A stretch of DNA of 64,000 bases from Macrostomum lignano (taxonomy: Eukaryota): the NCBI GenBank assembly GCA_002269645.1, contig NIVC01002285.1, positions 122,835-186,834 on the forward strand, written 5' to 3'. Shown one piece after another: positions 1,001-60,760 of this stretch (position 1 is the first letter of the stretch; every line of letters starts with the position of its first letter). Position numbers and translations under genes: made by a program. The notes below the pieces were generated by a model. It was not told the DNA's origin and did no database searches. It saw nothing but the letters and a program-made list of their open reading frames with translations.

Positions 1001-2011
1001 TCAACACTCGAGAAATCACCAGAAACAATCTGTAGCACAGGAAGCACTGTAGAGATTTCCAAAATACAGTGCAAAGTAAACTACTATAAGTAGTAACGTA
1101 AAAATGCGAAAAAAAAACTCGAAAGCTTAAAATTCCAAATTGTCACACTCTTTTTTTAAGACCACGAAAGCAACAAATGATCATCTTTTGCAACATTTAA
1201 ATTTAGAACTCTGAATATGGTACGAGTATTTGATGCTCAAATCTAGTGTATTCTAAAGGGTCTAATTTTTAAAACGCAAAACTGTCAACTACTAAAAATA
1301 AGCAGTTTTCCGCAAGATTTTCCCATAAATACAAGCCAAAATCCGAGCTAAAAATCTCAGACTCGGAGCAGCCTCAAAACACCTTGGGCATACTGCAGAA
1401 GCTAATCGAGGCTACATATCTGAGGGAGAAGCAAACCAATTGGTGAGCCTTTGTTCGAGCTTTTGTTATTTGGATTACTGAGAGCGATTTTATTGCCGGC
1501 CGTTATTGATCAGTTGATTTAACTGAGTTCATTGAATTTGAGGCCTCACATTTTCCTAAGGGATTGGATAGGATCTGTGGACCGATTCCGATACCCTTAG
1601 AGGATTATTGATTTATTGATTTGGATTATCCTAGAGTAACCGATAGGAGCAAACCACTCCGATTCCGTTATTTCTAGAAGAAGACGCCCTTTTTGGAGGA
1701 CCTCGTTATTGTTATAGAAAGTTGACTTTGTTATTAGGGCGCATCGTTGATATTGCTTTTTGAATCTGAGGCCTATATTGATTTCTGCATTCGAGGAATA
1801 CTGCGACGTCAACGGATTTAATTGTTACGCTGTCACCTTCGGCCGATTTTAGACTTCAAGAAGACTACCCCGGGAGGAACAGCTCTACAGACACGCGCGA
1901 CAAAGAAGAGGAGCCCGCAACAGTAAGTGATCACTAAATTTTGTTCCCAGGCTTAGGGTCTGGAAGTGGGAGTCTTCGGGTGACTGATCACCACCCGATC
2001 AAACTCTTCAG

Positions 2012-2227
2012 CACAAAACCGAACGCACAAACAAACTAGCTCGTAACAAGGGGCGACAGCAAACGACTCTACAAGTAGGTGACAGAGTCAAGAATACAAA
2101 ACCACTAAGAACTGCAAAACATCAACCACGATTCTCGGGACCGTATAGAGTGATTCGGAAATTCAACGAAACGAATGCGGCCATTCGATCGGATGACAAG
2201 AACAAGGAACCAATCCGGGTACACGTC
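2012..2227 (+). pseudogene. Gypsy integrase C-terminal region, part 1 (cut by insertion)
   Basis: Manual translation LQVGDRV...PRFSGPYRVIRKFNETNAAIRSDDKNKEPIRVHV (GPY/F motif); ends at the TSD CACGTC at 2222-2227. Confidence 0.8.
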
Positions 2228-2627
2228 ACTACATATCGCGCCAAAAGTGGTTGATTTTCAGATGTTTTGACGCAAAAAACGCAAATTATACTACTATCTG
2301 AAAATGAAGTAAGTAGTATACAAAAACGCTATCCTAAGCGTGATATGGCAATATGTAGTCGTAATAATCCATGTGCTCATATATGTACATTAATTCCATG
2401 TACATTAATCCCTATCTATCTCAAATTGGATATGTACATTAATTCCATGTACATTAATCCATATCTCAAATGTCCATGTCTATCCCCAATTCTATATGTA
2501 CACTTACATTAATCTACAGTGTCATCCCCAGACGTCCCGCGCGCACCAACATTACATGTACAATGCTACATGTACACAGAGGTGAGAATTACTAATCTCA
2601 TCTACTACCAAATGAGTCAACTAACCG
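2228..2627 (+). repeat. Left terminal inverted repeat of E1
   Basis: First ~90 bp identical to the reverse complement of the right end; patchy similarity continues to ~2627 (AATCTCA-CTACTACCAAATGAGTCAACTAAC block). Confidence 0.9.
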
Positions 2628-3002
2628 TGTAGCGTACATCATGTATAAGTATTTACAATGGAGATATATTTACATTTAATCAGTAGCATATTACAGGAAT
2701 CAAGACATGTACACCATCACCAGCAAATAGAATATACAGAAAATTTTACATTGTTTTTCAATAATTTTCTCTTCATAAATGATTTTAAACAGGTTTGACA
2801 TGCAAAATATGTACAATAGATTTTTACATTGGCAATTTCGCCACACGCAATGCAAAAATGTTTTATGTACATTGAAATATATACAGCAAATAGATTCTGA
2901 TAAATACAGCAGTATTACAATGCAAATTATGTACAATAAATAGATTTTACTAATTTAATATTGCAAAATGTACATTGAATCGTCAGTTATAATTGGATTA
3001 CA

Positions 3003-6000
3003 TTATTTATAGCCATAAGGCCTGCTGCAGGCCCCGTACACACGTTTTGTCAGGACGCGCTGAAACGTCTTGTCCATATTGATCGTGTGTATGGTACAAG
3101 ACGCCTTGTCGCGCCTGAACTGAAACTGCGGCAGTTTCAGGGAGCCGCCGTGTAGCAGGGCATTGCGCAAGTCGTCACTGCGTTCCCGAATCTCCGGAGT
3201 CAGGCGGATGCCCTTGCATTTCAAGACCTGGCTCTGGACTCCGGCCGCATCCTCGACAATGTAAGTGTAGAGCTTGGGCCCTCCACTTACAAAGTCGGTC
3301 ATCCGGCTGCCTGCGGGCACCTCGTCGGTCCACATTCCGAGGCTCGTGCCATGGGGCGGCTCCCATTGGCCCTCGGAATGCCGGTAAACGACCCTGGGTG
3401 TGGGGAGAGAGATAATTAGTTCCACATGCCAACTATTCAATTCTAAAATAATTTATCAATGCATTACTTACGAGTCAGTGTCGCAGTAAATGGCCCGTTC
3501 GCCGAGCCCCTCCAATGCCTCGTACAGGCGCAGCCGGGCCTGCGTGGTCGTAAAGACACCGATTGGCACATTGGAGTACCGGAAGGGCCGCTGATTAAAG
3601 TAGCGGTGCCGGTACTCTAGCAGCATAAACTCGCTGCCAATCGGTTCGCAGGCCTTGACTTTGAGGTTGGGGTCGGTCAGCCGGGCGAGCCAGTCCTCGT
3701 AGCTGGATACTATTTCTGTCGATGTCAGGTCGTCACGCTGACAAAATTTGCCCCAGAGCCTGTGTGTTGTGAAAAGAAGTGCTACTATTAGTAGAAGAAA
3801 ATCGTTTAAAAAACAGAATTTATAATTACTTACGAATTCAAAAAGATTTTCGCTACAAAGCGAAGTCCGGGGTTGGGCTCGACCTTGTCCAGCGTGACGC
3901 CCTCCTTTGCAAAGAAATCGGCAATATAGGCGGCCTTGTCTTCATCCGACATGCCGGGGGAGCCGCTCGACTCAGCCTTCAATTTGAGGAAGGTGCTGAC
4001 ATAGTCACTGAACAGACCGGTCCGCTTCTCTGTCCAGTAGGCTAGCGCGTGCACCACCTGCAGCCGGTAGCCCAACTGGAAGGCCTTCCGCAGCTCCGGC
4101 GTGGCCCAGGTACCAGTCAGTGCCCGCTGCTCGTCTGAGTGGTCACAATCGTCGCCGCACTGCTGCTCCATACAGGGGCGGCAAAGCCCAAAAAAGAGCT
4201 TCTTTTGCACCCTGTAGGGCAGCAGCGGAATGTGCAAATTTGACGGCGGCAACACAGTCACTTTGGCAATACCAAAGTAACTAGCCAGCGCGTCAGAATC
4301 TAGCACTTGCGGCGTCGGATGTTGCACCGGGTGGCCAATCGGGTACGGGTCCTTTGACTGCACCGTCGGGTACAGAGAGACCTGCCAGTTGAAATAAAAC
4401 ATTATTTTCATAAACTGTATTTTTGCAAAATATTCTACTATATCAGTAGTATCACTACTCACCACATCCCGATATTTGAGAGTCTCAGTCTCGCTGGCCA
4501 CAGCATGCGGGATAAAACACTCTACGCGGCCGCCATAGAGAGCATCTTCCATCTTGAGTGGAGCGCGCAGATGTGCAGTTGCGGCAATGAAATCGGCCTG
4601 CGACGCCAATACAGTGTCGTATTCGTGTTCCTAAATTGTACGAACACTGTAGTTTTGCCGCTCCAACACGCGAGTGAACCACTCAGTCTCGTGGCGGATA
4701 TGGCTCAGAGGCTGCCGTTTGAGCGGGTGGACAGCATCCTGATCAGGCATGCACTGCTCGCAGCCATGGTAGAAACAGCCATGAAACTGCAAGACAGTGT
4801 TGCTCGCCTCATCAAAACCATCCACCTTGCGGCCAAGAATGACAGCCTCGCCGCCAGTCGAGTCGCAGGTGCGCAGCCGCCCGCCAAATTCGGTGGCATT
4901 CAAATAAGTCAGCCACTTGCGCGCCTTGAACGACTGCTGGTCGGCCTGCCGGGCAATCACGCCGACCGAGTTGGGCTCCATAAATCGGGTGGTGAAAACG
5001 GCCATTGCCAAACTGGCAATCGTATTGGCCTGTACAAATGGTTCCAGGCCGTCGCAAATTTCACCAATTATTGTCCTGTACTTGATGCAGCCCTCGCGAA
5101 GCAGGACTGTGTCGCTCAAACAATAATCGAGATATTCCCGATTAAAGTTGAATAATTCGCCCTGTCGCGAGGCTAACCAAGCACAGATTGAGTCATAGTC
5201 CTTGTTTGCTTTGCCGCCATAATATTCAATAGCCGGGTAGGAGCCCACGTAGTTCCAATTAGCCGGCTTGTTGAACTCGTGGGGAAACGTCCCCTTGGCC
5301 AGCTTTGTGTCATCGAGCCCCAGCGCTTTTGGGAATTGCGCAAGCGGGATTGGTATAAAATTTAGAGAATCTTTAAATACCAATTTGTCAACCGTCATGC
5401 TCATTAGCCGGCTGCCCTGGAACAGTACTTGGGGCCGCTTCTTGGCCAGGCCATTTAGCAGAGCGCCAAGCAGTAGAAACGCATCATAGCCTGATGCATT
5501 ATGCGCTACAACAATGGCGCCGCCACGGAATGTGGTGCTCAGCCAGGCGAAAAAAGCATTCAGCGAGGCCGGGCCCACAGCCACAAAATCGGCCATTTGG
5601 CAGGCGCAGTCTGAGTGGCTGACGCAATTGGAGAATTCCTCCCCCAGATCGCGGCCAGTCAGACAGTTGGCGGCGCTATGCAGGCCATTGCAGAGGCGGC
5701 AAGTCTCGCGCGGAAACGCCCGGCCGGAGCAGGTCTCGCAGCACGTGACGGCAGTCACCAGGTGCACGTGATGCTGCTTCTCCTCGTCCGTGTACGTTTC
5801 CGTATCGTAGAACACGTACGGCATAGTCGAAGCTTTCACTTTGGGAGCCTTGACGAAGCACAAATGCGAGCCGGCCTCGTCGTACTGTTTACACAGTGGG
5901 CACTTGACATGCCCGCACTTGTGATCCGGCTCCCTTTGGCCGACCTTTAGCTCCTCGCAATACCCGCAATTGGGGCAGACGCGGGTGGTGTTGCAGCGCG

Positions 6001-8328
6001 ACCGGCCAGCCCGGTTCTTGCGAAGGTGATTCTCAAAACACTGCGGATTGTAACAATTCAATCCGCAGTCAGCACAGCGTTTGTAGTCACGCTGCAGGCT
6101 CTTGCAATTGGTGCCGGGAACTTTACATTGAGGGCAGGTGTTGGCGCACTTGTGCTCTCTATACTTGCAGTCGTACGGCTGCTGGCAGCGGTCGCAATAG
6201 CGGCGGGCACCGAAAAATGGCGGCACCTTGCACACTGCGTTAAAGTGCTCGCTAATTAGGTGCAAATTCAGCACTTCGCGGCCGGGCAGGGCATACACAC
6301 ATGTATTGCCCTCCTCGGCACTGTATACCCGGACGCCGAAATCCCGGCCGGGCGACTGGGCGTTCAGGGCCGCGAGCAGTTGGGGGAGCATGTCAACCCC
6401 GAAAGGCCCGGCCTGTGCAACGGTTGATAAAGACTAAAACATTTGTATATTAATAAAAATGCAAAATAAAATGTGCAAGAATATTTTTTACTCACAGAAT
6501 ACAATTTGGCGGCAATCTGAAGTTCCCCAGTCAGCTTTGTCTGCAGTGGGGAGTCCGCCTTGATGGTCCGCCAAGCCTGTCTAGTAATGGCCTTGGCCTC
6601 CAGATCGGCGAAAGCCTTGGCCACCACCAGTGCCCGAATGAGGCACCGCTTGTCGCTGTTGGCGATGACCACGTAGTTATAGCCAATTGAATGGCGTGCC
6701 TGAATGTGCCGCTCCGCCGCATCTAAGCTGCCGCAGCCGCCCCGCGGGACCCAGGCCTTGAGCAAAAACAATTTAAAGTTGTTGCCCAAGACACTGGAGT
6801 CCGACTGCAGCACCTTGTTGATGTGCTTGAAAACAAGCTCTGCAGTGAAGCGGGCGGCGCGGACCGGCAGGACATTGATGGCAAGCATCATGTTGTCGCC
6901 AGTCAACTTGGCCGAAACAAAATCGTTTGCGTGTAGGTCGGCGCAAAGCACAGAAATTATGCCACCAAACGTGGCGCGAATATCAGTGGTATCGGTGAAC
7001 GATACCACATATTCAACACCTGTTGCTTTAAATTTTGGCAGGGCCTTTGCCCCGCCAAGACGCGCAATAAAGCCTGAAAAATGGAGGGTTTTGAAATTAG
7101 AATTGCGAGAGGCTGCAGGTGAATGACTCATAAAATCAACTCCTTACCATCGCCTTCGACAGTGTCGGGCTGGGGCGGGGGTTGAAATTGAGCCAAATCT
7201 GCAATAAAAATGCGCATGGCGACTAAAATTCTGACCGCTTGGAATTTTACAACTGTCAAAAACTTTTGATTGATTGCCTGCAGCAGCAGCAATTTTATCG
7301 CCCCACCCCAAGCAACAAAAATTGGCGAGTTGTAAAAACCCCAACTCGGCACGTTCCGACACGTAGCAACAAAAGAAATGTGGGGTTGATTGACCCCGCT
7401 TCGAATTTTAGGCTGTCAAAATTGTTTGATTGATGACCCTGATAACACAGATCCTGCCGCAGCAGCCATTGTAAAATTTAAGAAAACCCCTATCAGCACG
7501 TGCCTCCATTGTACCTCCTTGACACCTAGCAACAATACCGCGCGGCCGCTTTTGGATTTTTAAAGCTGTCTGATTAATAACCCTCACTGTAGCAGCCAAG
7601 TTTTATTGCTGCCAAAACCCCTACTGTCAATTGCAGCGGTGATTACATAATCATGCCCAAAAATCGGGGGTTGATTTTATCACTGCCGCCTGCCCGCCCC
7701 CCGCTAAGTCACGCGCTCGCCACAGGATTGCTGTTTTTGCTTCTCTAGTCACATAACCCCAGAAATTTTATGACTATCCTCTACAGGCATTATCCGGCTA
7801 TACTGCTGTTGCGGATATTCTCTAAAACTCTGTTATTTCAGCAGGCCTGAATTTGAGAAATCCAACTTCAACATCTATGTCAAGAGGAAATTCAGAAATT
7901 TTAAGCCAAAATGAATGTTAAAGATGGAAAGATGTGGCTTCAAAGAAAGCCCATATTTCAACAAGCGTTAAGTTTGCAAATCACACAAATGCTAAAGCTG
8001 AAAAGCAATTACAGAAATTTTAAGCCAAAATGAATGTTAAAGATGGAAAGCTGTGGTTTCAAAGAAAGCCCATATTTCAACAAGCGTGAAGTTTGCAAAT
8101 CACACACAAATGCTAAAGCAATTATACAGCCCTATTTTTCTGATTTTAGATTTTGCAAATGCTAAAAGCATAGTTTAACGCGCGCAGAGACTCACCTAGC
8201 TGTCGTCCCCTCTTTGCTGCCGGAGGCTGATGCTGCTGCTGTTGTTGCTGCGGTTGCTGCCTGGATGGGCCGGCCTGCCCCCACAAGGCTGAAATAGCCG
8301 CTTCCGCAGCAGAGCGCTTCGATGCCAT
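3003..8328 (-). pseudogene. Protein-primed family B DNA polymerase (Polinton group-1, VSR type), 7 exons, one internal TAG
   Basis: Exons 8328-8196, 7198-7148, 7112-6496, 6433-4463, 4381-3834, 3759-3472 and 3393-3003 total 3999 nt with consistent phases and GT-AG introns. Motifs: NSDKRC...EHF (OTU-like), Cys-rich region, YDTET, AHNASGYD, VDG...FHGCFYHGC, YRDV|VSLYP, KIFLNS|LWGKF, YCDTDS|V. TAG at 4631-4633. Exons 1-2 are less certain than exons 3-7. Confidence 0.9.
7893..8119. repeat. Two-copy tandem repeat, period ~119 bp, inside pPolB intron 1
   Basis: CAGAAATTTTAAGCCAAAATGAATGTTAAAGATGG... starts at 7893 and at 8012. Confidence 0.85.
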
Positions 8329-8854
8329 TTCGATGGGCACGCGAAGGCGTATTCAGCATGCCAGTGAAGTATGAGACAGACTAGGCCCATGGGCTAAGGT
8401 CTGCGATGCTTCACGCCTGCCCCTATCTTCAGCAGGTCAAGGCTGGTGGGAGGTCTGCACCCTCTATTTGCCTCTGGCAGCCGCAGACCCCCCCCCCACG
8501 CTGTCTCGCAAGTCGACCCAGGGTACTCGTCCCCGCGTGTGTTCAAGGCAGTCCCTAGGGCTGCTGGACAGACTGGGCTCCGGCGCTGGCGACCCTATCC
8601 AGTGGCTTCGGCCGAATTTGGGTATGCGGGTCTGGCTCGCCAACCTGCAGGCCGTGGTACTGCTCAACGTACTCTCTAATGCCTAAGGTGTTGACCGTGC
8701 CGATGGGCTGGAAGGCCGGGGAGTAGTCCGGTCGCAAGCGGTCCCCCTCCTGGTGTCGGGCCAGCCTTGAGGGTGCTATTGGCCTACTGCCCGGTCAGGT
8801 GGAGCGCCGGGTGGGTACCGCGCCCCTTTGAGGGTAGCCCACCAACCTTTTATC

Positions 8855-10359
8855 ATGGCCTTCGAGCCGTCTATGGATAATCAAGCTAACTCTAGGGACG
8901 GGGACCCTTCTAAACCCCAACCTCAGTCCGAAGGACCGGCCGGCCCTGCTGGCAGATCCCAACCGACTGATTCAACTGTGGCAAAGGAAGGACCGGCTGG
9001 CTCTGCTGGCAGATCCGACCAGAGCTACCAAACTCAAAATACCCAAAGACCTGCCAGCTCCGCTGGTGGATCTAAGGGAACCGCGAGCTCTGAGCCTAAA
9101 GGACCGGCCAAATCTGGCAGATTCGATGAAGCTCAGCGGGCTCGGCTTGAGCGCAAACGCGCTAAACAACGCGCCAAAAGGCAGGCCAAGAAGGGAGCTG
9201 CGGGGGCCAAAGCGGCGGCGTCCACCATGGATGCTGAAGCGACTGGAGTCCCAAGGCAACCAGGCGGGCCGGCCGGTGGAAGCTCCAGTAGTTCAGCGGC
9301 GGCGCTCCCTGGAGCTGCTGCCGCGGCTGCTGAGGCCGAAACCACGGCGCAACAAATGGCCACTGCCAACAAGGAGTTCCTTCGGGAGCTACCTTTGCGG
9401 CGAAGGCCAAGGCCAAAATCCCGGGAGTGATCATCCAAGGTCGCGACCAGGACTGGACCACTGATCAGCTTCAAAAAGTGTGGAGTGCTGTTGACTCCTA
9501 TCTGATTGAGCTGACTGTCGAGGAGGGAATCTCCATCGGCATTGAGCGGATGGTGCTGCGAAGCACATTCGTTCTTATTGCTCCTAGCAGCGAGGAGGAC
9601 GCTCGGCGGCTGCTCCAGCGGCTACCGACGGTCTCCTTGGATGCTGACCTTGGCGGAGCTCTTTTTCTTCGCGAGGGCCAGCGTCCAAAGACGATACCCT
9701 ATGTGGTTTTCGTCCCTGCTAAGAGCACCGCAGCTGGACCAGACGTTATTCGCCGGGTCCTACTGCGTCTGAACCCCGACCTCCCTGCTAGTGGACTGGT
9801 GTATCACCGTAAAGTCCGCAGGGGGGAGACGGGCAACTCAATTGTCCTCGGCCTTTCCAGCACTTGGGCGAGTCGGTACCCTAATGGATCCTCTTTCCAG
9901 CTGGGTGCCCTCAAGCTCAAGATGCGCCGAGGAAAGTCTGCCAAAGGGAAGGCTACTGCCAACCCCGGCATCTCCGGCAAGAGCGGGGCGCAGTCTAAGG
10001 CCCAAGGAAAGGCGCAAGCCGATCCCAAAGCCAAAGCTGCATCTCGCCCCTCTGCTAGCAGCAGTTCGGCGACCGCGGTAACGGCTCCGGCCAAGCCCCG
10101 GGAACCAAACCTGCCAGTCGGAGAAGGAGTTGAGGACGAGGCCGGGTCTTCGGAATCCGAGCTCTCCTCGGCCACCTTGGTGGGGTCTGAAGGTAAAGAT
10201 GCAGGTGAGGAAGCTTCCTCCATCCTGTCATCGGAGCCTGAGGACTCTGCTGGGGGGGCCGGTGGGGGTGAGGAGGCCATGGACGTCGACCAACTCCCAT
10301 CTCCCAGTCAAGCCCCAGCGGCCTGGGACGAGGACGATCTGTTGTCCAAGTCTCCTTGA
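8855..10359 (+). pseudogene. LINE ORF1 (gag-like), one frameshift near 9427
   Basis: Basic, low-complexity N-terminus and a globular C-terminal half (IIQGRDQDW...); lies directly upstream of ORF2. Confidence 0.7.
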
Positions 10360-10397
10360 TGGCCCGGGCTCTAGCCAGCTATTGCATTTAGTACAGT

Positions 10398-13300
10398 ATG
10401 ACTAAGCTCCACGCTGCCAAAGGAGCGACATTCTGTCTGCAAATTAATTTACAGCATTGCGTATCTGCGTCAGTAAATCTGATGAAGATTGCTGAGCTGT
10501 ACAGGCCAGGCCTCATCCTGATCCAGGAACCCTGGATGCGCAACGGTAAGTTGCCCAACATTCCCTCTGGCTACTCTGATTTTTATGTGTGTGGCCCGGG
10601 GAACAGCCGCCCTAGAGCGGCTATCCTCGCTGCTAGCCATCTCCAGGCTTGGCTGAGGACTGATCTCTCTGATGGAGACCTTTGCGTCATCCAATCTAAT
10701 CATTTCTCTCCGCGTACGTGTCTTGTTGCCTCGGTTTATATCCCAGGCGACAGAGACCCTGCTCCTGAGAGTTTACTGCGCCTCGCGCAGTACTGCGAGT
10801 CCCAGAACGCTGAGCTGTGCTTAGGGGGTGACCTCAACGCGCACCACAAGCACTGGGGCAGCAAAGATACCAAACTAGAGGAGAGGAGCTTCTGGCCCTC
10901 ATCTCTAACACAAACCTCATGCTCTGCAACCGCGGCAGCACTCCTACCTTTAATAATGGCAGATGGACCGAGGTCCTCGACGCCACACTCGTTACCCCAA
11001 GACTCTTTGACAGAGTTGAGGAGTGGAGAGTCTGGTCTGAGGAGCCCTCCCTGTCTGACCACTGCTTTATCGCCTTTAACATCGCGGACACTAAAACCCA
11101 GTCTCCGATCACTTGGAGACGCAATATCCGCAACACTGATTGGGCGGCCTACAAGGCTGCCCTTGATCTGCACCTGCAGGAACTCACGGACTTACGTCCG
11201 ATTGAGACCTGCGAGGATGTGGATCATATGGCTGAGACGCTGACAGGTTGCATTATTGAAGCCTACGAAGCGGCTTGTCCTGCTCGCGCCTACAAAGGCA
11301 AGACCTCGGCGCCGTGGTGGAACCCGGAGCTGGGGAAACTCAGGCGGAAGGCCAAAAGCCTTCATCGCCGTGCCATGAAGACCGGAAACCCGGAGGACAT
11401 GGAGCTTTTCCGGCAAGCCTCCCGCAATTTCAAATCTGAAGTGCGCAAGGCCAAGGAATGTAAGTGGCGCCAATTCTGCAATGAATTGGATCAAGACAGA
11501 CCTACTTCTAGGCTTGTCAAGGCCCTTACAATGGACAAAATGTCCAAATTAGCCATGATCAAAAAAGATGATGGCTCTCTTACTAAAGACCCTGAAGAAG
11601 TGCTTCAGCATATGCTTAGCACATTCTTCCCGAGGGTACCTACTGCTAGACCGGAGCCCAACCATTCGATGGATGGAGCCACCCTAGCGGCGGGCATTGT
11701 CACTGAAGACCTAATCGCTCGTGCGGTCAGAACCTTCAAACCCTTCAAATCTCCTGGACCTGATGGTATCTACCCTGTTCTCTTCGTGAAGCAGCCAAGA
11801 TACCCTCGTTCCTGAGACTCACCCGCAATCTTATGCGGGCCTCTATCCAGCTGGGATACGTTCCCAAATGCTGGACTGAAGCTCGGTAGTCTTTATTCCC
11901 AAACCTGGGAAGGGTGACTACCAAAGCGTCAAGGCCTTCCGGCCTATTAGCTTAACGTCAGCAATGCTTAAGCTCACTGAGAGGCTTATTCTCTGGCGGC
12001 TGCTGTCCTGCGAGCTGACAGCGATGCCCCTCAGCAATAATCAGCACGCCTTCCGTACCGGGAGGTCGACTGACAGCGCCCTGCATGCGATTGTCGAGAA
12101 GATTGAAAGGGCGGTACTGGGTGACGGTTACGCTCTGGCTCTCTTTCTTGACATTGTTGGCGCCTTCGACAACGTTATCTTTGAAGCGTTTCAGAGGGCC
12201 CTTCAAAATCGCAAAGCTCATGCTACCCTCATACGGTGGATCATGTACATGATCTCCAACCGTACGGTCACTGCCCAACTTCTTGGGCAAACTGCCTCCA
12301 CCAGAGTCTGTAAGGGTGGACCCCAAGGCGGAGTCCTCACCCCGACGCTCTGGAACCTGGTCATGGACGCTCTTTGAGTGACTCCCGACCCGACCCCGTC
12401 TTCAAAGTCGGGTATGCTGATGACGTCACGGCCATTGTGGCAGGACCGTCTCCCAGCACGCTCAGGGATCTGATGCAGAGCTTTATCCGCAAAGCAGAAT
12501 CCTGGGCCAATGACAATGGTCTGGAACTCTCTGAGCCCAAAACCGTTGCCATTATGTTTACCAGCAGACTACGCTGGAACATACGTCCTCTGCAGCTCTA
12601 CGGCAGAGATATTGCCTTCGCGCACCAGACCAGATGTCTCGGGGTCACACTTGACCACCGGCTCAACTGGTCCTTCCACGTGAAAGCAAAAGCCAAGCGT
12701 GCCTCAGCCATCCTGGCCCAGCTCCGACGAGCACTTGGCACTTCTTGGGGTCTATCCCAAAGCGGCTTTGGTGGATCTATACTTCCGTAGTTAGACCTGC
12801 CATTACGTACGCCTCTGTTGTCTGGGTTAGCGCTACCCAGGTCAAAAGCCATGCAGACCTGCTCAACACGATCCAAGGCAGAGCGTGTAGGCTCATCTGC
12901 AACGCCACCAGGTCCACGCCCTTTGCTGGCATGGGGGCCTTCCTTAATCTTCCGCCTCTTGACCTCTTCATCAGGGGTGAGGCGGCTAGAACGACGCGGC
13001 GTCTAATTGATGCCGGCGTCAAATTCATTTACATGAGAGCACCTGCTAAGCGGAACCTTGTCCCGCATAGCGATCTGTGCCTCAACTTTCTCAACGAGTG
13101 TCAGGCCAATCGCGTCTTCACCGATGGCATTGCCTCAACGCTCAACCTGAGACAGCGCTACTCCGTAGCTATCGACTCGCGCGATAACATCAATGACCAT
13201 TGGAACCCTGGTGAGCTTCATTGCTACACCGACGGTTCTAAGCAGTCAGCCAACACCGGCTTTGGTGTTGGAATCTTTCTGAACGGGAGGGTCATCGCTA

Positions 13301-14133
13301 CCCACGCTCAATACACTGGGGTCAACTCCAGTGTTTTCCAAAATGAAGTTCTGGCCATCAGCTCCTGCACTGCAGAGCTTCTCGCCACTGGCGTTACTGG
13401 TAAGAACATCATTTTCCATTCGGACAGCCAAGCTGCCTTGCACGCCATCAGTGGCTGCAGCACCAACTCTACTACAGTCCTTGACTGTATCAAACTCCTC
13501 AATGTGTTGGGTTCCGCCAACAAAATTACCCTTAAGTGGGTTCCGGGGCATGTGGGGATCCGAGGAAATGAGTTGGCTGACACCCTTGCAAAAGTTGGTG
13601 CCTCCGGCTCCTCTCTCGGCCCCGAACCTCTTGTCCCGATTCCTGGCTGTGTCATCGACTCGCGCATCAAAGCGTGGATCAGGACTCAGCACCGCTCGAC
13701 TTGGGCGAACCGCACGAACTGCAGGCAATCCAGAGGCGCTGTCCCTCAGCCCTCTCACCAGCTCCGGAAGCTCCTCTTGCGCCTCTCGCGCAGAGACATC
13801 CGGGCTGCCACCATGACCCTCTCTGGTCACGGCTGCTTCTCCAGGCACCAGTACCTGCAGGGCAACGCCACCAACGCCACCTGTAGTTTCTGCAACTCAG
13901 GTGACGAAACCGCTGAGCATTTCGTCAGCATCTGTCCCGCCTTCACGCGGGCCAGACTCACTTACCTCGGGCCACACACATCTATTACTGAAGCGTGCAA
14001 ACCCGAAAACTTTAATCAGCTCATGCGCTACCTTCGGGCCACCCGCAGGGCTGAACTCTCCTTTCCAGAGAGCACCATAGCTGCTGGCGACACTGGGGGA
14101 CCTCCCTGGGCGGCGCCAACCCTCCGTCCATAG
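10398..14133 (+). pseudogene. LINE ORF2: AP endonuclease, reverse transcriptase, RNase H, CCHC; several frameshifts or stops
   Basis: LILIQEPW, GGDLNAHH, SDH (APE); KSPGPDG, QHAFRTGRST, LDIVGAFDNV, PQGGVL, YADD (RT); YTDGSK, SDSQAAL, WVPGHVGIRGNELAD (RNase H); CSFC...ETAEHFVSIC. Confidence 0.93.
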
Positions 14134-14421
14134 CGACGCGTCGGCCGTTCAGGGACTAGCGGAATGGGCGCCCGCGCCTTCCCGCTGTGTCCCCTCCGGG
14201 ACAGCCCTGCAGCTAAGTCAAGTAAGTCAAAGCCATTTCGATGGGGAAGGTAGATGGTTGTTGATGCTGCTGGTGATGTTAATGATGCTGCTGCAGCTGA
14301 TGTTGGAGGCAGAGGGCTGGTGGCTGTCGTTGCTTCTGCTGTTGCTGCTAGCTGTGATGCTGCTGTTGTGGCTTCTGCTGCTGGCTGCTTTTGCTGATGC
14401 GGCTGCAGCAGCTCTCACCCG

Positions 14422-14430
14422 CTTTATATA
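14422..14430 (-). promoter_or_regulatory. TATA box of the E1 pPolB gene, displaced by the LINE
   Basis: TATATAAAG on the minus strand, followed by a ~180-nt CAG-rich leader running into the TSD that contains the ATG. Confidence 0.55.
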
Positions 14431-14497
14431 GAGGGAGGATGGGGTAGGGGCACGAGAGGTGTGCGTGGTTTTCTTTCCCGGGTCTATATTTTCTAGA

Positions 14498-16534
14498 TTA
14501 GTGTACGATTGTACACTCGGTTCCGCATTTGGTATAGAAAAGTTGGGGTCGAAAATACCCCATAAATTCTTTTCTCATGCGGTTTTTTATTGGATCTGAG
14601 CGGAGCCACCCAACCAGCATTCTCGCAGGAGTGGAAACTGCTGCTCCGCCAGAGTACAGTCTCTTAATTAGGAAGACAGCTTCCTCTTGCAGCATGTCTT
14701 TTCGACTTAAATCTGATAGAAAACGGTGTTTATTCAAAATACAATACCTTGGCGGACCAATAATAGCTAAATACAGATGAAAATATGAAAGATAACTTCT
14801 GTGGTTTTTAAGGCCCGCTGGTCTCTGGGAGAAAATGGTTGTTAAAAATCGCTGTATCAATTTAATAACCTTGGTGAAATGGGGCTTGTGTGCAAAGCAT
14901 CCGATTGACAGAGGCTTGGTGAAGAGTAATAGTCGATGAAAAGCTCTTGCCATCATCTAAAATATCCACAAAGAGTAATGAAGTGACGGAGATCCTCTGT
15001 CACAAGCCAAAACAGAGAGACAGAGTTTTCTACTTCTGTTTACGTAATGTTTAGGGATGGACCTGGGGTTATAGGGACAGAGAGTCAGTTATGGCATTTA
15101 CGCGGTAGTAAAGAATTGCCTTGGTGAGGCTGGGGTAGGTGTTGTGCTGTTCTCTCCATATTGGCGAACATTAATAGTCCTGGGTTGAATTTTGATATGG
15201 CTAGTATGCAGTGGAGAATCTTTGAATTGAAGGGTGATTCAACATGCAAAGTATGCAACAAAACTGATTCAGGATTCAGTGCATCTAAAAGAGGCTGTTG
15301 GGAGCTTCGGAACTGAGAATAACGTTTAAAATAGCATCAATGGCATGATTTAGTAATCGAAATCAATCGAACACTGAAAACTTTAAGTTTAATAGCAGAC
15401 TGTGTTTTTAGCCCCAATTTTTACAGTGTCTATACAATATTTCCCCAGCTTCTTGGGCAATATACATGCCTATTTGAATGATTAAACAGCATTTGTGATG
15501 ATTTATTAGCTAACATTATTATCTCTATTGATAAAATGACAGATTTCGATCCATAAAGTAAGCATTTTAACGTTAAAAATCGAAAAATGAGGAAAACTCG
15601 TGGTTTTCGTGAAAAAATTTGCATTTCTAATAAATTTTTACCATTAATCAACCATTTCTTAGGCTGGGCTGGCTTGTGGACTTCCGTGTGGGATCATTCT
15701 TGCTTCAAAGCCGTCTCAAGTAAAGTTGAAACGGCATTTGGGCAAATTAGCTGTTGAAATTATGGTTTCCAGTGATGAAATTACTGATTTTGATCAACAA
15801 AGTGTAACTTGAAACGGTAAAATTAAAGAAACTGTAGAAAACTCGCCTTTTATGAAATGTGCTTTTTACGAGCTACTAATTTAGCTTTTAATAAACTTTG
15901 ACGGAATTCCAACTTGGAGAGGTCCGTGGGTGATTCATTCCTGCTTCGAGCGATCGAACTTTCATAGAGTCTGAAAGCTTTTAGTGAGAGGGTAGTGGAA
16001 GCGATAGAATTGGCATAGCAGCACGTTTTTGGGCGGGTGGACTTCACTACTTCTAGTATACCGCATTGGTCATAGTGCCAAAGTATTTCTTTGACAAAAC
16101 ACATCTATAGAATTCAGTCTCGGAATTGTATGCAGAGGAGACACTGATTCATAGGCTGTGTACATTGACAGATGCAGGGGTATTGGGTCGATGCAGTTGG
16201 AGGTTGACTCGGATTTGCTCAGATTCGTGGGGTTGATGTGTGCATTGAAAGTTGGTTTCTTGCTAACTGGGGCGGCATGGATGACGTAATTGGAGAAGAG
16301 GGGTTTTGCTGAATGAGGTTTAATATAAGGTCCGTGCTGTGAAAAGATCTGTTTGTACACTGAAAATGGAGAGAGGGGTCGAAATTCCTTGGCATTTAGA
16401 AGGGTGCAGAGAGAAACAGGGACGAGTGGTTCAATTCGATTTGCTATATAGGGGTCTGCTGAGGGGTGGATGTTTTCGAACAAGTCTTGGGGTTGAATTT
16501 TGAATATGGCCGGAGATAAAGGGTGATTCAACAT
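14498..16534 (-). pseudogene. Two degenerate paralogous reading frames of unknown function inside E1
   Basis: Both begin ATGTTGAATCACCCTT (MLNHP) at 16534 and ~15245 and share AAAATTCAACCC(C)A downstream; broken by stops and frameshifts; no recognisable domain. Confidence 0.3.
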
Positions 16535-17209
16535 GCAACATAATTAATTCCATAGTGTACACCAGCGTCAGTGGCATATTTTGCGGATAAAGTGCGACAA
16601 GGGTCTTGTATCATCCGCACTGTGATACGAAACATATAAAACATTGCTTTCACAGTCTTGAATTTAGAGGCCGACTAAATAAATCGTATACGTATCATAT
16701 ATATACGTCTTTTGAAAACTTTTTTGACTCGGGGAGAGGGGTTGGGAATGACGTAATTGTCTCGGAGTGGCGACGAGGGCTGAATTCTAGAGGGATGAAG
16801 TATAAAAGGAGTGGATATAACAGTGTGGACAGCAATTTTTGGCTAACTCATGCCTCCTCCGCCAATTTTGGGGATGGGCGGCGGTTTCTGCGTACACTGT
16901 TTGCTTTTTGAGGGTCAGCGGAATATGAAGAGTTAATTCTTGGATGTGCGGCCGCTTTGCAAATTTTGGGTATAATTTGGGTGGGTGGGCGCTTCTGCAT
17001 GCTCTCTGTTTCAACTATTGAAAATAGTTGAAAATAAACATGATATCAGCTTTTTCAATATAAAAATGTAAAATTATGAATGTAATCTTTTTCAGTAAGA
17101 ATCTCGACTTGTAAACTCTACTAATGGTAGTATGGCGTAATCAGTTACATTTGGTTTTGAGTAATTCACATATAAATATGCATATATGACGTGTTCTGTA
17201 AAACTTGGA

Positions 17210-17740
17210 TGTTAGTTGACTCATTTGGTAGTAGGTGAGATTGTACAGTTGGCGCGCACATACCGACCCACCTCTGCGCATATACTGTGCTGTACACGTA
17301 ACAATTAGTGTTTCGAGTTGTACATATAATCTTGTGGGGTTGACGATTCAAATACGCAGAGCGGGGGCCGTCGTGTAGATTGGGGATTAATGTACATAAT
17401 GTACTGTACATATAAAAATTGTCATAGAAGTATATTAATGCGCAAGTGTACATATAGAAGGACTGTACAAGTTGACAATACACATGTAGAATTGGGATAG
17501 ACATGGAAGTAGACAATGTACATATACAATTTGAGATAGATAGGGATTAATGCAGTACATGGGATTAATGTACACATATGAGTACATGGATTAATGTACA
17601 TATACGAGTACATATTAAAGTATATCACGCTTAGGATATCGTTTTCATATACTACTTACTTCATTTTCAGATAGTAGTATAATTTGCGTTTTTTGCGTCA
17701 AAACATCTGAAAATCAACCACTTTTGGCGCGATATGTAGT
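17210..17740 (-). repeat. Right terminal inverted repeat of E1
   Basis: Reverse complement of the left TIR, including ATGTACATTAAT sub-repeats. Confidence 0.9.
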
Positions 17741-17905
17741 CACGTCAACAGATTGGAAAAGATGCAGAACCCGAAGGAATCTATAATCTTGCCCGATTTC
17801 CAACCAACGGACCCGAGAAGACTGGCATTGCAGCACAGGAAGCCGCTATATAGAAAAATTGGCACGCAAGTCTTGGATGATTCATTGGATGCTCATTTGA
17901 GCTAA
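17741..17905 (+). pseudogene. Gypsy integrase C-terminal region, part 2
   Basis: Continues the same frame from the duplicated CACGTC (HV-NRLEKM...), restoring the VHVNRL motif; stop at 17903-17905. Confidence 0.8.
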
Positions 17906-24691: not shown

Positions 24692-26835
24692 TACCACTTT
24701 TCCCCACCACTTTATTGCCACGCTCGCGGCCACTCTCTCCTAGATTCCTAACTTTTGCTTTGCTATAGTGATGTGGTTCGACGCTTTAGCTAAATGCGCG
24801 AGTGTTCGGGTGCTGGGAAAGTCCGCTTCAATTGATTCTTTTTTGTTCTTATAGCACAACAGAACTTTTGGTTTCTGGAAGTCTTTTCAATGTTCATGCG
24901 CAAATTTAGAAACAATGTGCTATTAGGACTAGTCACTGCCACCCTGCATCAGTTATGTTTGCCTCCACGCCGAAGTCCCAATACCAAACACCTCTCAATT
25001 CAGACCGTGTTGCACTAGCACTGATCCGCAGATGGAAAAAATAAGCTTAGTATGGTTTGTCTTAAATCTGGATTTCTTTCTTTTTCCAGGCTTGCCTCTC
25101 ACACCCGCCCTATACTAGTTTGTTAAAAAATTACAAGTTTTCGCATCATTCCTTCCTTCTAAGCGTCTTGTCTTAACTGCAGCTAGTCCGTTTCGTCTTC
25201 TTAGGCTAGAGGCTCGTTCTCATCCACTAGCCCATCCTCTCGCAGTCAGTGGGTTTTACGACTTTTCCTATCACCCCGCCCCCAGCACAAGTGTACATTA
25301 TTCAACAGTCTGCCTCTCGCCTGTGCCAGCGTACACCCGCTGTTATTCTTCGTCCCCTGTTATCGATCTCATAAGAAAGACCTCTTTCGCTCTCTTTAAA
25401 ATCGCTTAAATCACTGTGTTAAGAAGTTTAGGAGTGTAGCCGTGTAGGACAGGAGTATTTCGCTAAAATCGCATTTAAAGCAAGACAATGATTCAACAAC
25501 AGATTATCATTGCATTAAGGAACCAGGCTAACCAGATGCGCGCACTCACTCGAGCTATTGTGGCACTCCAGTCAAAATTCAATGGCTCTACACAGCCGCT
25601 GAGTCGCACTTCAAAGCACCAGTTGCAGTCCGCACCATTCAGTGGCACTGAAAAACTAGTCGGACTGCTAACAGCAACAAAGTTGTTGTTGTGTTCATCT
25701 ATTCGCTAGTATCGTGGGTTGTTCGCTGCTACAAGTTTTGGTAGGTTTAAATTGCCTATGTGAATATTTCAACTCATGTTCTCCAGTTTTGTTTCATTGT
25801 TTCATCCTTTTTAACATCAGCGCATCGCGCGCGGCTCGATCAAGAACGCCACCGCAGTCGCCTTCAATCTCAGCAAGTGGACAACCAACCCAAGAGACAG
25901 GTCTGCACTATCCCCGCGGATCGACCCCTCAACGCGAATGGCACGCGATTCCCCTGCAGAGTATCAATGAGGGATGAGAGTCGCCAAACCAAACTGGAGA
26001 GTCAATAGAATTAGATAGCGTTCCATCGCAGCGGATGCAAGGCCTCACTGCCCAGGCTCTGGTGTGATAGGAACCACAATTTATTGAACTATTGGCATTG
26101 ATGTAACGGTACTAACACACGGTGCAATTTTTTTAAAATTTTTATTTATATTTTTGTATCTGCGATCAGCAGACCCCGCCTATCTTCTGTAACTCTTCAT
26201 ACTGCTTTACTTTACTTTACTTTATTTTAAATTGTAGCTTAATGCTTAAATGTAATTTCCGTGTGCTTGATGCTATGTCATTTGCCCATTCTTCATTTTT
26301 AACACTTTATCGCCATCGATGCTAACTTTCCCATTATTATTTTTTAGTTTTATAATATTTACGCGTTGGTGCTAAGACTAAATTTGAGTGTTTTTGTTTG
26401 GTGTTCTATATCTCCTAATCTAATGTTTTTGCTTCATTAAACGTATAATTTTTCATTCTCAACTAACTCCATGTATGAAATGAAATCTTGTTAATCTTAA
26501 TCGTTAAACTGTCTTGGTCTTTAGACTCTGTTATTCACTCAAAGGCTCGTAGAGAAAATTACTACATCTAGGTTTAAGCTCGCCGTATTAGTTCTAGTGT
26601 AAGATCTAAACACTGTTCTAAGTTTGCCGTGCGCAGCGGATAAGTATTAAGCATTGGATAGAAACTTTAGTATTGCACAAATTAAGAACACGGTATTATA
26701 ATCGCATTGAAGTAACACTGAAAGCGATTAATATTTATTTTCACATACATTCGCACATGCTCAATGCAACGGGCTTGCATTCTCTGTAACGGCTGTAACG
26801 TTATTAGTTATTAGGCGGGCGCGTAAACACAATGC

Positions 26836-27480
26836 TTAAAATTCACAGAGGCCCGAGTCCGAGTCAGAAGTCGCCCGTCGAATAGGCGGGCCAGGCCTAT
26901 TCTCTCTAACCAGTATGCGCAATGGACCATAAAGCGAAGGCTCTTCGGCGATGATTACCCAATTCTCGCCGTTACTACGCACCCGTCCATGCCCGCGCCC
27001 ATCAAGAGGGCGATGTCGGGCGTAGACGTGAGATGCGTGAGGATGGTTAAGAAATGAGTACCAGCGAGGATTGTTGTCGCCGCTCATAGCGCCTTCGCTC
27101 CGGCTAGGTCCATCCCGTGACTGTCGACAAACACGAGCCTCGACGGAGCCAATCTCACGATGGCTGCCGCCCCCCGCGACGCTCTCGCTTGGTCTAGAAG
27201 GCTCGCTCACCAAGTCGGACTGCACAGCGCTTCCGCCGCCCACGGCACCCTCGCCCAGGACGGAAGACTCGAGCATCGCAGCGGTCGGTCGAACATCCTC
27301 GCCAGAATCACTTTGAAGGCTAGATTCAACATCGCTGTCTCCGCCCGCAGCGCCATATATATTATTCCACAGGGCCCTCGCCCACGTCCACGCACTCGAC
27401 ACCCACGTCCACGGTGCCCAGCGTCCATGATCACCCTGCGGTTCAGGACTGATGGCATCTGCGGAGGAAAGTCGCAACAC
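26836..27480 (-). CDS. Hypothetical 214-aa protein in the inverted arm
   Basis: Open in both arms (213 aa at 48810-49451); ATG start; AATAAA-like signal downstream; no known motif. Confidence 0.4.
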   Translation of the reverse strand: MLRLSSADAISPEPQGDHGRWAPWTWVSSAWTWARALWNNIYGAAGGDSDVESSLQSDSGEDVRPTAAMLESSVLGEGAVGGGSAVQSDLVSEPSRPSESVAGGGSHREIGSVEARVCRQSRDGPSRSEGAMSGDNNPRWYSFLNHPHASHVYARHRPLDGRGHGRVRSNGENWVIIAEEPSLYGPLRILVRENRPGPPIRRATSDSDSGLCEF

Positions 27481-27506
27481 TAGATGTTTATTTCAATGAG
27501 GATAAA

Positions 27507-27728
27507 TTAAAACATAACCAAGCAGGTACCAAACTTACCCTCTTCAGGGATCCGGCATAGTTCATTTAAGTAGTCGGCATCCGGAAACTCGTCAAACTCC
27601 GGAAATTGCGACGAACTATTAAAATATAAAGTATCTATATGGTGTCCATTTCGCGAACGCGAACGGCCCCGTCTAGGGTCGTTAACAGCTTCAGCAGCGC
27701 GTCCGAAATGATTTAGATTCTCGCTCAT
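27507..27728 (-). CDS. Hypothetical 73-aa protein or exon in the inverted arm
   Basis: Open in both arms; TATAAGC ~110 nt upstream; ends in a possible splice donor (AG/GTAAG). Confidence 0.3.
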   Translation of the reverse strand: MSENLNHFGRAAEAVNDPRRGRSRSRNGHHIDTLYFNSSSQFPEFDEFPDADYLNELCRIPEEGKFGTCLVMF

Positions 27729-27911
27729 AACTCAAACAAAATTTAAGAAGTTAAGCTATATTGATACTGCTATACAATAGAGATTGCGCTTTTTTAGAGT
27801 GTATCCTCTCGGATACAGCTCCCTTGCCGTCTAAGCTTATATCGAAAGTGAAGTTCTCTGTTTAGGATTGGCTATATTTACCGTCTTTATTCTTCACAAC
27901 AGAGTGGGTCA

Positions 27912-28181
27912 TCACGGCCAGCAACCCAACCGATATCGAACGGAGCGTGCGGTTGACTGATTCTGTAGGAATGAGCGATCACCCCCATCTTCTTTATCCC
28001 TTGTTACAACTGCCTTCTTCGTTTTAATCCCACTAAATTTTCTATATACAACAGCTGACACAGTTTCCCTAGTGGCATTTTCAGCCTTGGCACCAACTGT
28101 TTCAGTCTTGACTGCATTTATCATCCCCCTTTCCATTAGTAGACCATTGCTATTTACAGGATTTAGAAGACCAACTGTCAT
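27912..28181 (-). CDS. Hypothetical 89-aa protein, divergent from gene X
   Basis: ATG at 28181, head-to-head with gene X; fused to the truncated penton in the right arm. Confidence 0.3.
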   Translation of the reverse strand: MTVGLLNPVNSNGLLMERGMINAVKTETVGAKAENATRETVSAVVYRKFSGIKTKKAVVTRDKEDGGDRSFLQNQSTARSVRYRLGCWP

Positions 28182-38770: not shown

Positions 38771-39639
38771 CGCTCTAATACAGGACATCAACAAGCTGAA
38801 TGCTCCACCAATGGTCACGCACGCCTCCAAGTTGAAACCATCACCTGATCAACTCCCGGTTGAGATATTTCTACCTCAACTCACCCGGACGCTGACTCAA
38901 GAACACCACAACCACCAACAGCCGCTGACAAAGACGGTCAGCAAGCAGACTGATGATATCCGGATGACAGGACCATGCCGCCGCCGAAGAAGTTGCCGCG
39001 GATTCGCAAGCGGAAGGCCACCTCTGCTGCTGACAGCTCGGACTCAAATACGTATCGTTGAAGCGATTGCGCAGGACCTCATGGAGGTCTGCAAGCCGCC
39101 GATAGAGCAGCTCGTGAGTCGTCCGTCTGGGCGAAAAGCGCCCACAAAGCCAAGAATGCGAGCCCCGCAGAGCCCGCTTTCAGCTTCTGCTGACGGCTCG
39201 GAGGAGGAAACTGATGACCTAGTGGAGGACCGCGATTTGTCACCGCCCTTTGACGCTTTTACCTGAAAAGCATCAGCTTAGATCGGGCGCTTTAGTGACT
39301 TCTTCAAAACCAAGAAAAACAAAAATGAACTATTGTTATGGTCCTATCTAAATGCTTGACCATTGATTTTTGCCTGGCTAGTTAGTCAGAAAGCTAGCTA
39401 GTCTGAAAACTAGTTAACCCGCGCTATTTTTTAACCAAAAGTTGAAGCAAGGACTACTTAACAACACAGGACGTTACACTTGCAAATATCCAAAGACACA
39501 TACATTCAAAGCGGCATGTTAGAATTCTGCCAATATTTGCAAGTGTAACGTCCTGTGTTGTTAAGTAGTCCTTGAGTTGAAGTTCAAATGCAAGTCAAAT
39601 AAACGTGTAACATCTCATTGTTTTACAGAAATCAAGAAA

Positions 39640-46400: not shown

Positions 46401-46837
46401 ATGGTAAGAGACCAGAGCAGGCACTTTAAAAAGAGCGCAAGAAAAACTAAAAAAAATCTCGAACTACTACTACTAGTAGTCGTAGAGCAAAACGGAATCA
46501 GCGACTACAGAGAGGAAGTGGTATTGTAAATTGGGTTATTAACCATTTGCCGTTTGAACTACATCTCCCGGGCTACCAATTCTGTGGACCGGGTACTAGG
46601 TTGAAAGAACGATTGGCGAAAGGCCAGACCGGGAAAAATAGGCTAAATAGGCTGTGTATGCTGCACGATAAGGCCTACGAGAAGAACTCTGAAACGAAAG
46701 ACCGTCTCGAGGCGGACCGCTTGCTGGAACAGGGCGCGCGAGAAATAGCCAACGATCCAAGCAGTGGTTTGGGTGAGAAACTAGCCGCCAAATTTGTAGC
46801 AAAGGTTATGCAAGTAAAGCAACAAGCGAGCGCCTGA
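46401..46837 (+). pseudogene. Basic N-terminus plus parvovirus VP1-type phospholipase A2 (PLA2X), element A
   Basis: LPGYQFCGPGT...LCMLHDKAY; 1-nt frameshift in an A-run near 46450; no intron. Confidence 0.85.
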
Positions 46838-49842: not shown

Positions 49843-50024
49843 AGTAGTAAGCGTTTTTTACGCCCATAGCTCGTTTTTACATGGCGAAATCAATAGGAAG
49901 TTCCAAGCACTAGTTCAATGGGGATACGTGCATAGCCTGTTTTTGCATAGCAAAACTAATACAAAGTTCTAGGTTATAGACGATGAATTTCCATCCTGCA
50001 CAGGCGCGTTACCAAATCTCGTCC
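49843..50024 (+). repeat. Polinton-type terminal sequence of element B
   Basis: AGTAGTAAGCG start; colinear with 24510-24691. Confidence 0.8.
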
Positions 50025-60428: not shown

Positions 60429-60494
60429 AGATTGCAGGTTTAAATTGCGCGCAAGAGCGGTAGTATCTGGAAATTACTGCAGTTCATTCTTTTT

Positions 60495-60708: not shown

Positions 60709-60760
60709 AAACTAAATTATTTGCTATTGGTTTTCAAGTCTTTACTATTTAAGCAACAAA

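Follow-up and report, generated by a model that had tools for sequence, protein, structure and literature searches.

How does a DNA element with the ends and polymerase of a Polinton, yet none of the genes for integration or virions, come to lie in a flatworm chromosome, and how did it move? Such an element lies in the window, the 64,000-nucleotide stretch of Macrostomum lignano DNA analysed here. That it is Polinton-derived, and that the present copy is non-autonomous, is supported by its termini and gene content. We propose, with a probability of roughly 45%, that it is a non-autonomous Polinton derivative, one of a reduced, multi-copy lineage in Macrostomum that has kept only the replication end and is moved in trans.

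Boundaries and insertion site

The element proper spans 2228-17740 (15,513 bp) and ends in 5'-ACTAC...GTAGT-3' (Table 1). The original prediction placed inverted termini between two copies of CACGTC, and both were recovered: the terminal inverted repeats (TIRs) are perfect over 93 bp and extend to about 310 bp at 82%, which fits the Polinton range of 100-1500 bp, and the hexamer would recur at the opposite end by chance with a probability of about 1.6e-4. The frame in the left flank matches Integrase_p58_C at E 0.0016, under the curated cut-off, and the host frame read from left to right flank is stop-free over the 131 codons examined. Boundaries had been claimed to the base; this flank test fixes the insertion point but not the length of the target-site duplication (TSD). 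A duplication of 4 bp (ACGT, with CACTAC as left end) or of 8 bp gives an identical empty site at the cost of one mismatch, and 6 bp, as in Polintons, is the sole zero-mismatch reading in this one copy. The terminal hexamer ACTACA has no exact match among the three reported Maverick motifs, (AGT)2, (AG)3 and (AC)3A, a list drawn from vertebrates only. TGTACA repeats are dense subterminally (12 and 10 copies, against 0.2/kb in the remaining window).

Table 1. Coordinates of the element, its gene and its surroundings in the window
Feature	Position	Strand	Remarks
Interrupted host: decayed Gypsy integrase, C-terminal part	1988-2221	+	resumes past 17746
Left TSD, CACGTC	2222-2227	.	
Left TIR	2228-2517	.	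2228-2320 perfect; subterminal part rich in TGTACA repeats
TIR internal island, 32 bp	2594-2625, paired with 17211-17242	.	
pPolB exon 7	3003-3393	-	KxY motif, natural stop
pPolB exon 6	3472-3759	-	end of motif B, motif C
pPolB exon 5	3834-4381	-	second half of motif A through motif B
pPolB exon 4	4463-6433	-	vOTU His, Cys-rich region, ExoI-III, VSR-like motif; in-frame stop 4633-4631
pPolB exon 3	6496-7073	-	terminal-protein-like domain, vOTU Cys; fold taken from sibling model P0003
pPolB exon 2	7148-7198	-	
pPolB intron 1, 997 nt	7199-8195	-	119-bp tandem duplication at 7882-8119
pPolB exon 1	8196-8328	-	Gln-rich, basic end; predicted start codon within LINE TSD
Non-LTR retrotransposon (LINE), ORF1 and APE-RT-RNase H ORF2 in five frame pieces	8338-14245	+	14-bp TSD 8324-8337/14232-14245
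Predicted pPolB TATA box (about 14430) and CAG-rich 5' leader	14246-14430	-	putative; both parted from the gene by the LINE
2.8 kb without recognisable gene	14431-17210	.	two copies of a 20+21-bp motif pair
Right TIR	17430-17740	.	17648-17740 perfect
Right TSD, CACGTC	17741-17746	.	

The nested LINE (5,908 bp, antisense to pPolB) does not belong to the core, and subtracting it leaves 9,605 bp, in agreement with the earlier figure of about 9.6 kb. Across the whole window, decayed elements lie nested in one another. The neighbouring Polintons start with AGTAGT and have no TIR sequence in common with the element, and a neighbouring pPolB is unrelated (E 0.12) and of a different polymerase class. 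Because of these different ends and the unrelated polymerase, we reject them as parents; nor does any of them offer a helper with matching ends.

A spliced polymerase gene and a 2.8-kb arm

The pPolB gene is spliced from seven in-phase exons across six GT-AG introns and has the layout TP-vOTU-exonuclease-polymerase, with motifs ExoI-III, A, B, C and KxY present and Pfam PF03175 matched on two exon frames. The 3' part of exon 1 is also found in sibling model P0011. In the predicted N-terminal structure of sibling P0003 (pLDDT 85), residues 135-275 resemble OTU proteases (best Z 10.0, rmsd 3.2, 116 aligned), and both the catalytic Cys and His of the vOTU domain are found in the window exons. Residues 14-128 weakly match Y-family little-finger domains (Z 4.8-5.5), a resemblance reported for the TP by Krupovic 2024 (PMC11161782). 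The best viral Foldseek matches of the N-terminal model are adintovirus, bidnavirus-like, MELD and mavirus PolBs. As originally predicted, pPolB is the sole recognisable gene of the core, although the prediction missed the splicing and the stop that breaks this copy. With one in-frame stop, and the LINE between promoter and start codon, the present copy is dead. The predicted TATA box and the spliceosomal introns point to nuclear expression of the intact gene.

The core had also been described as free of integrase, capsid, ATPase and protease, a description upheld by Pfam, PHROGs, profile search and splice modelling; a transposase or hidden recombinase in 14430-17200, named beforehand as refuting evidence, was searched for with negative results. 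The longest open frames in 14431-17210 are 157 and 152 codons, both on the minus strand. Pfam, applied to six frames and to eight separate frames of this arm, returned no integrase, transposase or other family, while the rve profile picks up the adjoining decayed Gypsy integrase at 1e-11 as a positive control. PHROGs yielded no integrase or transposase and one 20-aa match of unknown function (E 0.0045), a six-frame profile search against 1.84 billion representatives gave 0 matches with a method that passed its local control, and Atlas returned nothing usable for two frames. Rfam, run on the whole element, gave a single Histone3 match under gathering score. Splicing modelled with pPolB's own GTRAG donors produced a longest frame of 155 aa. 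Capsids, ATPase and protease lack coding room (157-aa frame; 155 aa consensus-spliced), and comparison with the genes of neighbouring Polintons gave no match; Pfam alone is blind to capsids of this kind. The arm has no recognisable fragment of a viral gene, and the Pfam scan of it found no RNA polymerase or capping genes. A likeness of frame 16104-15853 to a piggyBac C-terminus is not supported by Pfam or Atlas (codon z -0.3).

Relatives in Macrostomum and the origin of the element

Our search gave 61 pPolB matches, of which 48, all gene-model clusters, make up the Macrostomum set, 47 of them named M. lignano; this copy number is inflated, since M. lignano is a hidden polyploid (PMC10468722). 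In a quick tree that left out eight rows for coverage (P0011, P0014, P0016, P0049, P0055, P0056, P0057 and the neighbouring pPolB), the Macrostomum pPolBs form one clade (SH-aLRT 100) of two subfamilies (97 each) with short tips. The subfamilies are about 58% identical and have intron positions in common. Seventeen models include a PC4-like gene: antisense in 14 of the 37 in subfamily B, sense in P0051, and in 2 of the 11 in subfamily A. Neither the gene nor a remnant of it is found in the present copy, where the CAG-rich leader scores 67 points against the PC4 tail through its composition (3/100 block shuffles reach 67). Because relatives carry this gene and the present copy does not, deletion has happened in the lineage. 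Four close siblings match the non-coding intron 1 of the present copy at 92-100% in translated comparison and have no PC4 sequence. In models P0009 and P0045, pPolB is flanked on both sides by host exons. Upstream of pPolB, antisense LINE sequence is confined to P0014, and its presence in P0004 and P0011 is not supported.

That the family is multi-copy and that an integrase or virion Pfam domain occurs in 0/48 clusters favours the trans-moved reading, though weakly, because separate genes usually give separate models. The 7,900 residues of non-pPolB sequence fused in 17 models gave no integrase, ATPase, protease or capsid probe match, sense or antisense; this silence, too, is weak because gene models seldom fuse separate genes and the probes derive from Gypsy elements and distant Polintons. 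Among the probe controls, LINE RNase H and PC4 scored far above shuffles and LINE RT did not.

CACTA/Chapaev elements have CAC(TA) at both ends and a DDE transposase, and a cut-and-paste element of this kind with a captured pPolB, moved by that superfamily's transposase (left end CACTAC, TSD 4 bp), fits a left junction that is readable as CACTA and the dense subterminal TGTACA repeats. It would, however, require a terminal-base mismatch in the otherwise perfect 93-bp TIR, the right end is not readable as CAC(TA), six-frame Pfam and profile searches found no DDE transposase, and a 6-bp TSD with pPolB is the Polinton signature (PMC8097293); we consider it very improbable. Slightly less remote, though still improbable, is that the element is autonomous and has a recombinase in 14431-17210 that is heavily spliced or escaped recognition. 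The minus strand there is somewhat more open than chance, the loosest donor rule opens a 413-aa, 10-exon path that 0/60 local shuffles reach, codon bias is marginal in two frames (z 2.4 and 1.9), and two blocks are each preceded by a promoter-like motif, which is thus repeated. With realistic donors, however, the paths are not significant (reached by 25/300 and 22/200 shuffles), the same held-out test gives z 3.4-7.1 for true pPolB exons, and the arm gave no Pfam family, no usable Atlas match and 0 profile-search matches.

The serious competitor, which we rate only slightly below our own proposal, is ordinary deletion: a Polinton of full length, with introns and the same TIR, would have inserted itself by its own integrase and lost its interior afterwards or shortly before, and no lasting satellite lineage would be required. 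The gene content is exactly that of a Polinton's pPolB end plus the far TIR, the relatives have at least one further gene (PC4-like), and decayed elements nested in one another fill the window; moreover, degradation has affected 96% of the Maverick loci of vertebrates (PMC8097293), and pPolB and TIR occur without INT at 10 C. elegans loci (PMC11414722). On the other hand, no remnant of an integrase, ATPase, protease or capsid lies at any putative breakpoint, no model cluster (0/48) has such a gene, and the four siblings that match in intron 1 also lack PC4. Reduced elements of this kind may spread as a separate lineage or may be just broken copies: losing the interior after insertion would leave a picture identical to that of mobilisation in trans, and one copy was seen as DNA. 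Polinton origin and non-autonomy thus survive from the original interpretation; "mobilised in trans" and "replication-only satellite" go further than a single copy, which fits gene loss before or after insertion.

In the trans-moved lineage that we favour, the kept part is pPolB, joined in many relatives by a PC4-like gene for single-strand binding. Host Pol II would transcribe and splice pPolB, to judge from its introns and TATA box. The polymerase, whose domains and catalytic residues are present, would use the terminal protein fused to it as primer at the TIR ends, and release of the TP may fall to the vOTU domain, activities that we infer from Krupovic 2024 (PMC11161782). A linear copy would then be inserted by the retroviral-like integrase of a putative helper Polinton, leaving the 6-bp TSD observed here. 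We are more doubtful of a long-lived, replication-only Polinton satellite lineage in Macrostomum, with or without the PC4-like gene and with no integrase or capsid in any member, that still amplifies through the borrowed integrase (perhaps capsid) of unrelated Polintons.

Comparison with known elements

The TP-vOTU-exonuclease-palm pPolB, long TIRs and 6-bp TSD resemble those of Polintons/Mavericks and Alpha-type adintoviruses (Starrett 2021, PMC8502044; Krupovic 2024, PMC11161782). Unlike Polintons/Mavericks, the element has no integrase, capsids, ATPase or protease, and its core measures 9.6 kb rather than 13-25 kb. The C. elegans remnants (Polinton-1_CB with Polinton_CE_TIR, PMC11414722) likewise combine pPolB and TIR without INT; according to their description, these remnants derive from a family that is known in its full form, whereas our element has both TIRs and the TSD intact, a spliced gene and no full form seen. 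Capsid-less Trichomonas Polintons (PMC4405056) have similarly lost the virion module for a purely genomic lifestyle, but they lost virion genes only and the present element lacks the integrase as well. Cytoplasmic and mitochondrial linear plasmids (PMC11161782, PMC4405056) are also TIR-bounded pPolB replicons with no integrase or capsid. In contrast to them, the element is inserted in a chromosome with a TSD and its gene is apparently expressed in the nucleus; it also lacks the RNA polymerase and capping genes of the cytoplasmic (pGKL type) plasmids. We found no literature on Macrostomum Polintons or a pPolB-only family, and such a family could already stand in Repbase or Dfam.

The copying mechanism of Polintons is still inferred from gene content. 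If TIRs and polymerase were kept and integration borrowed, two steps would be separated, with pPolB acting on its own ends and the integrase in trans, and this would be shown in a laboratory model with transgenesis (PMC7053086). A satellite lineage, if real, would be a non-autonomous transposon in which a replicase, not a transposase, is under selection; a plain deletion copy would be an ordinary relic, left by a flatworm Polinton family that apparently has not been described. Independently of how the element moved, an intron-rich Polinton polymerase common to two diverged subfamilies, with six spliceosomal introns in this copy against none in intact vertebrate Mavericks, suggests long nuclear residence.

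Architecture of the element and its polymerase gene

The element carries terminal inverted repeats (TIRs), a target-site duplication (TSD) and a spliced gene for a Polinton-type protein-primed polymerase (pPolB) with terminal protein (TP) and vOTU protease regions; it belongs to a multi-copy family and has no recognisable integrase or virion genes. As originally predicted, its termini are perfectly inverted, exactly reverse-complementary over 93 bp and then out to about 310 bp at 82%, with CACGTC on both sides (computed chance recurrence of this 6-mer ~1.6e-4). The insertion split a decayed Gypsy integrase in its C-terminal part; the integrase frame matches Integrase_p58_C in the left flank (E 0.0016, under the curated cut-off) and carries on into the right flank, 131 codons without a stop. 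Of the prediction that the boundaries are exact to the base, the insertion point stands, set by this flank continuity. The flank test alone does not set the TSD length, because 4-bp, 6-bp and 8-bp readings all yield the same empty site; the 6-bp duplication needs 0 mismatches, the 4-bp and 8-bp readings one each. The terminal hexamer is close to ACTACT, the canonical 3' motif of Polintons; the ends may be inside-out relative to AGTAGT elements, or the likeness may be due to chance.

Features of the element and its surroundings (positions within the window)
Feature	Position	Detail
Element	2228-17740
Terminal hexamer ACTACA	2228-2233; 17735-17740
pPolB, seven exons	8328-3003	minus strand; 1,320 codons
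In-frame stop in pPolB	4633-4631	the only one
TP region, exon 3	6892-7071
Translated intron-1 stretch	7200-7406
Tandem duplication	7882-8119	119 bp
Nested LINE	8338-14245	plus strand
Right-hand arm	14431-17210	2.8 kb
20-bp + 21-bp motif pair	15182-15249; 16490-16538	two copies
AGTAGT left ends, neighbouring Polintons	24510; 49843
Inverted repeat	26441-28168; 48122-49845	1.7 kb, 98-99%
Coding tandem array	35393-35776	9/18 bp
Perfect inverted repeat	39448-39574	42 bp, 43-nt spacer
Polinton gene block	39.7-48 kb
PLA2-like gene, apparently no intron	46451-46837
Tandem duplication	60488-60709	111 bp
PLA2-like gene, apparent intron	60930-61008

The six pPolB introns (997, 74, 62, 81, 74 and 78 nt) are all GT-AG with GTRAG donors and compatible phases. 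Alignment to gene models from the database supports exons 2-7, and model P0011 supports the end of exon 1. The exons contain exonuclease and polymerase motifs and the vOTU Cys and His; a VSR-like motif is recognised at motif level only. A structure was modelled for the first 292 residues of a sibling, P0003 (pLDDT 85); in it, residues 135-275 match OTU proteases (best Z 10.0, rmsd 3.2, 116 aligned) and residues 14-128 weakly match Y-family little-finger domains (Z 4.8-5.5), with adintovirus, bidnavirus-like, MELD and mavirus PolBs as best viral matches. This arrangement is the TP-vOTU one known from Polintons (PMC11161782). Among close siblings the TP region is just 66-93% identical, the exonuclease and translated intron-1 stretch mostly 92-100%; TP is possibly under diversifying selection, or recombining.

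The nested LINE, a non-LTR element in which Pfam recognises endonuclease, RT and RNase H, has a perfect 14-bp TSD and an ORF2 split into five frame pieces. It separates the predicted pPolB start codon from a TATA box near 14430 and a CAG-rich leader. Its subtraction leaves a core of 9,605 bp, in agreement with the ~9.6 kb predicted.

The Macrostomum pPolB family

Two search runs with exon 4 as query gave 25 and 36 clusters. The Macrostomum set holds 48 clusters (61 member sequences), 47 named Macrostomum lignano plus P0010, which groups with them; identity to the query reaches 92% in this set and is 23-38% for non-Macrostomum matches, which points to M. lignano or a near relative as the host. 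In a quick tree built on the exonuclease block, which keeps 55 rows, drops 8 and has SH-aLRT as its only support measure, the set falls in a single clade (SH-aLRT 100) with two short-tipped subfamilies, A (11 rows including the window copy) and B (31 rows), at 97 each. Hidden polyploidy may inflate the copy number (PMC10468722). Gene models P0006 and P0051 imply inverted or nested family copies, whether real nesting or assembly artefact.

Because break points in B models coincide with window intron junctions, five intron positions look, on this indirect evidence, shared between A and B. The exon 4/5 junction is the exact point of departure in 18 of 37 models and the exon 6/7 junction in 2 of 21; a single model continues across the intron between exons 5 and 6, and variants are seen following exon 3 and preceding exon 2. 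Intact vertebrate Mavericks, in contrast to this six-intron gene, are described as intronless (PMC8097293); in Polinton-like elements of dinoflagellates, introners are known to have inserted (PMC12166617).

Upstream of exon 2, B models carry a PC4-like gene in antisense: compatibility extends to 93 of 96 codons, against at most 33% in shuffles, and P0006 has a PC4 Pfam match (E 2e-4, under cut-off). Its markers occur in 14/37 B and 2/11 A models; it lies in sense in P0051 and also forms two stand-alone clusters. PC4 counts among the common accessory genes of Polintons; a literature search on that role found no paper. Other sequence fused to the pPolB models comprises host genes (ADAM, synapsin, C2H2 zinc finger), LINE pieces and an unassigned remainder, and none of the 48 clusters has an integrase or virion domain. 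Visible family content is thus pPolB plus the PC4-like gene, and the window copy, with no trace of the latter, is reduced further. At the P0014 locus a subfamily-B element is preceded, in antisense, by a full-length relative of the nested LINE, oriented as in the window; this one case may hint that the LINE targets these elements.

Search for further genes and the origin of this copy

The prediction that pPolB is the sole recognisable gene held across Pfam, PHROGs and profile searches. Pfam gave no meaningful match in 18 frames of 14246-17740, intron 1 and the left end (two at E 0.1 and 0.26), six-frame PHROGs a single 20-aa match of unknown function, and Atlas no usable match for two frames. 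A six-frame profile of the arm, blind to a distant transposase, matched 0 of 1.84 billion proteins; in a local control its construction retrieved siblings sharing ~90 residues and missed some shorter matches. The arm was also checked for a hidden recombinase by spliced frames: the longest with the pPolB donor consensus is 155 aa (pPolB control 848 aa; reached by 25 of 300 local shuffles), with GTRA donors 246 aa (22 of 200), and under the loosest donor rule a ten-exon path of 413 aa (0 of 60). This last path counts against an absence of further genes, and small or decayed minus-strand genes may be present; a transposase in the arm is unlikely. The motif pair there looks promoter-like. The 7-mer GGGTTGA/TCAACCC occurs eight times in the core, never in the LINE and four times in 17747-64000.

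In its working the element would resemble the replication half of a Polinton; pPolB would be expressed, protein-primed copying would start at the TIRs, and insertion would proceed through a Polinton integrase. It fails as an autonomous Polinton. We narrowly favour, at a probability of roughly 0.45, a lineage mobilised in trans that lost its integrase before this copy inserted. A deletion derivative, with the integrase lost after insertion, is almost as likely; from a single DNA copy the two are indistinguishable. Integrase-less pPolB and TIR remnants are known (PMC11414722), and polymerase-only or integrase-only fragments are also reported (PMC8504770). A preprint mentions Orthopolintovirales insertions in flatworms, without detail (bioRxiv 10.1101/2025.04.19.649669).

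Neighbouring Polintons

Decayed Polintons of another kind lie elsewhere in the window, with dNK, pPolB with endonuclease VII, dUTPase, a Walker-A ATPase, a weak protease match (E 0.13) and what we take, from motifs, to be capsid and PLA2-like genes. Their left ends have nothing in common with the element's TIR and their pPolB no detectable similarity to its own; we rejected them as parents on these grounds, and none is evident as a helper. Module swapping among Polinton classes is reported (PMC8502044; PMC10748475).

The apparent intron in one of the two PLA2-like genes indicates that other Macrostomum Polintons have introns as well. Between the arms of the 1.7-kb inverted repeat lie nested LTR-element sequence and the Polinton gene block, just upstream of which lies the perfect 42-bp inverted repeat.
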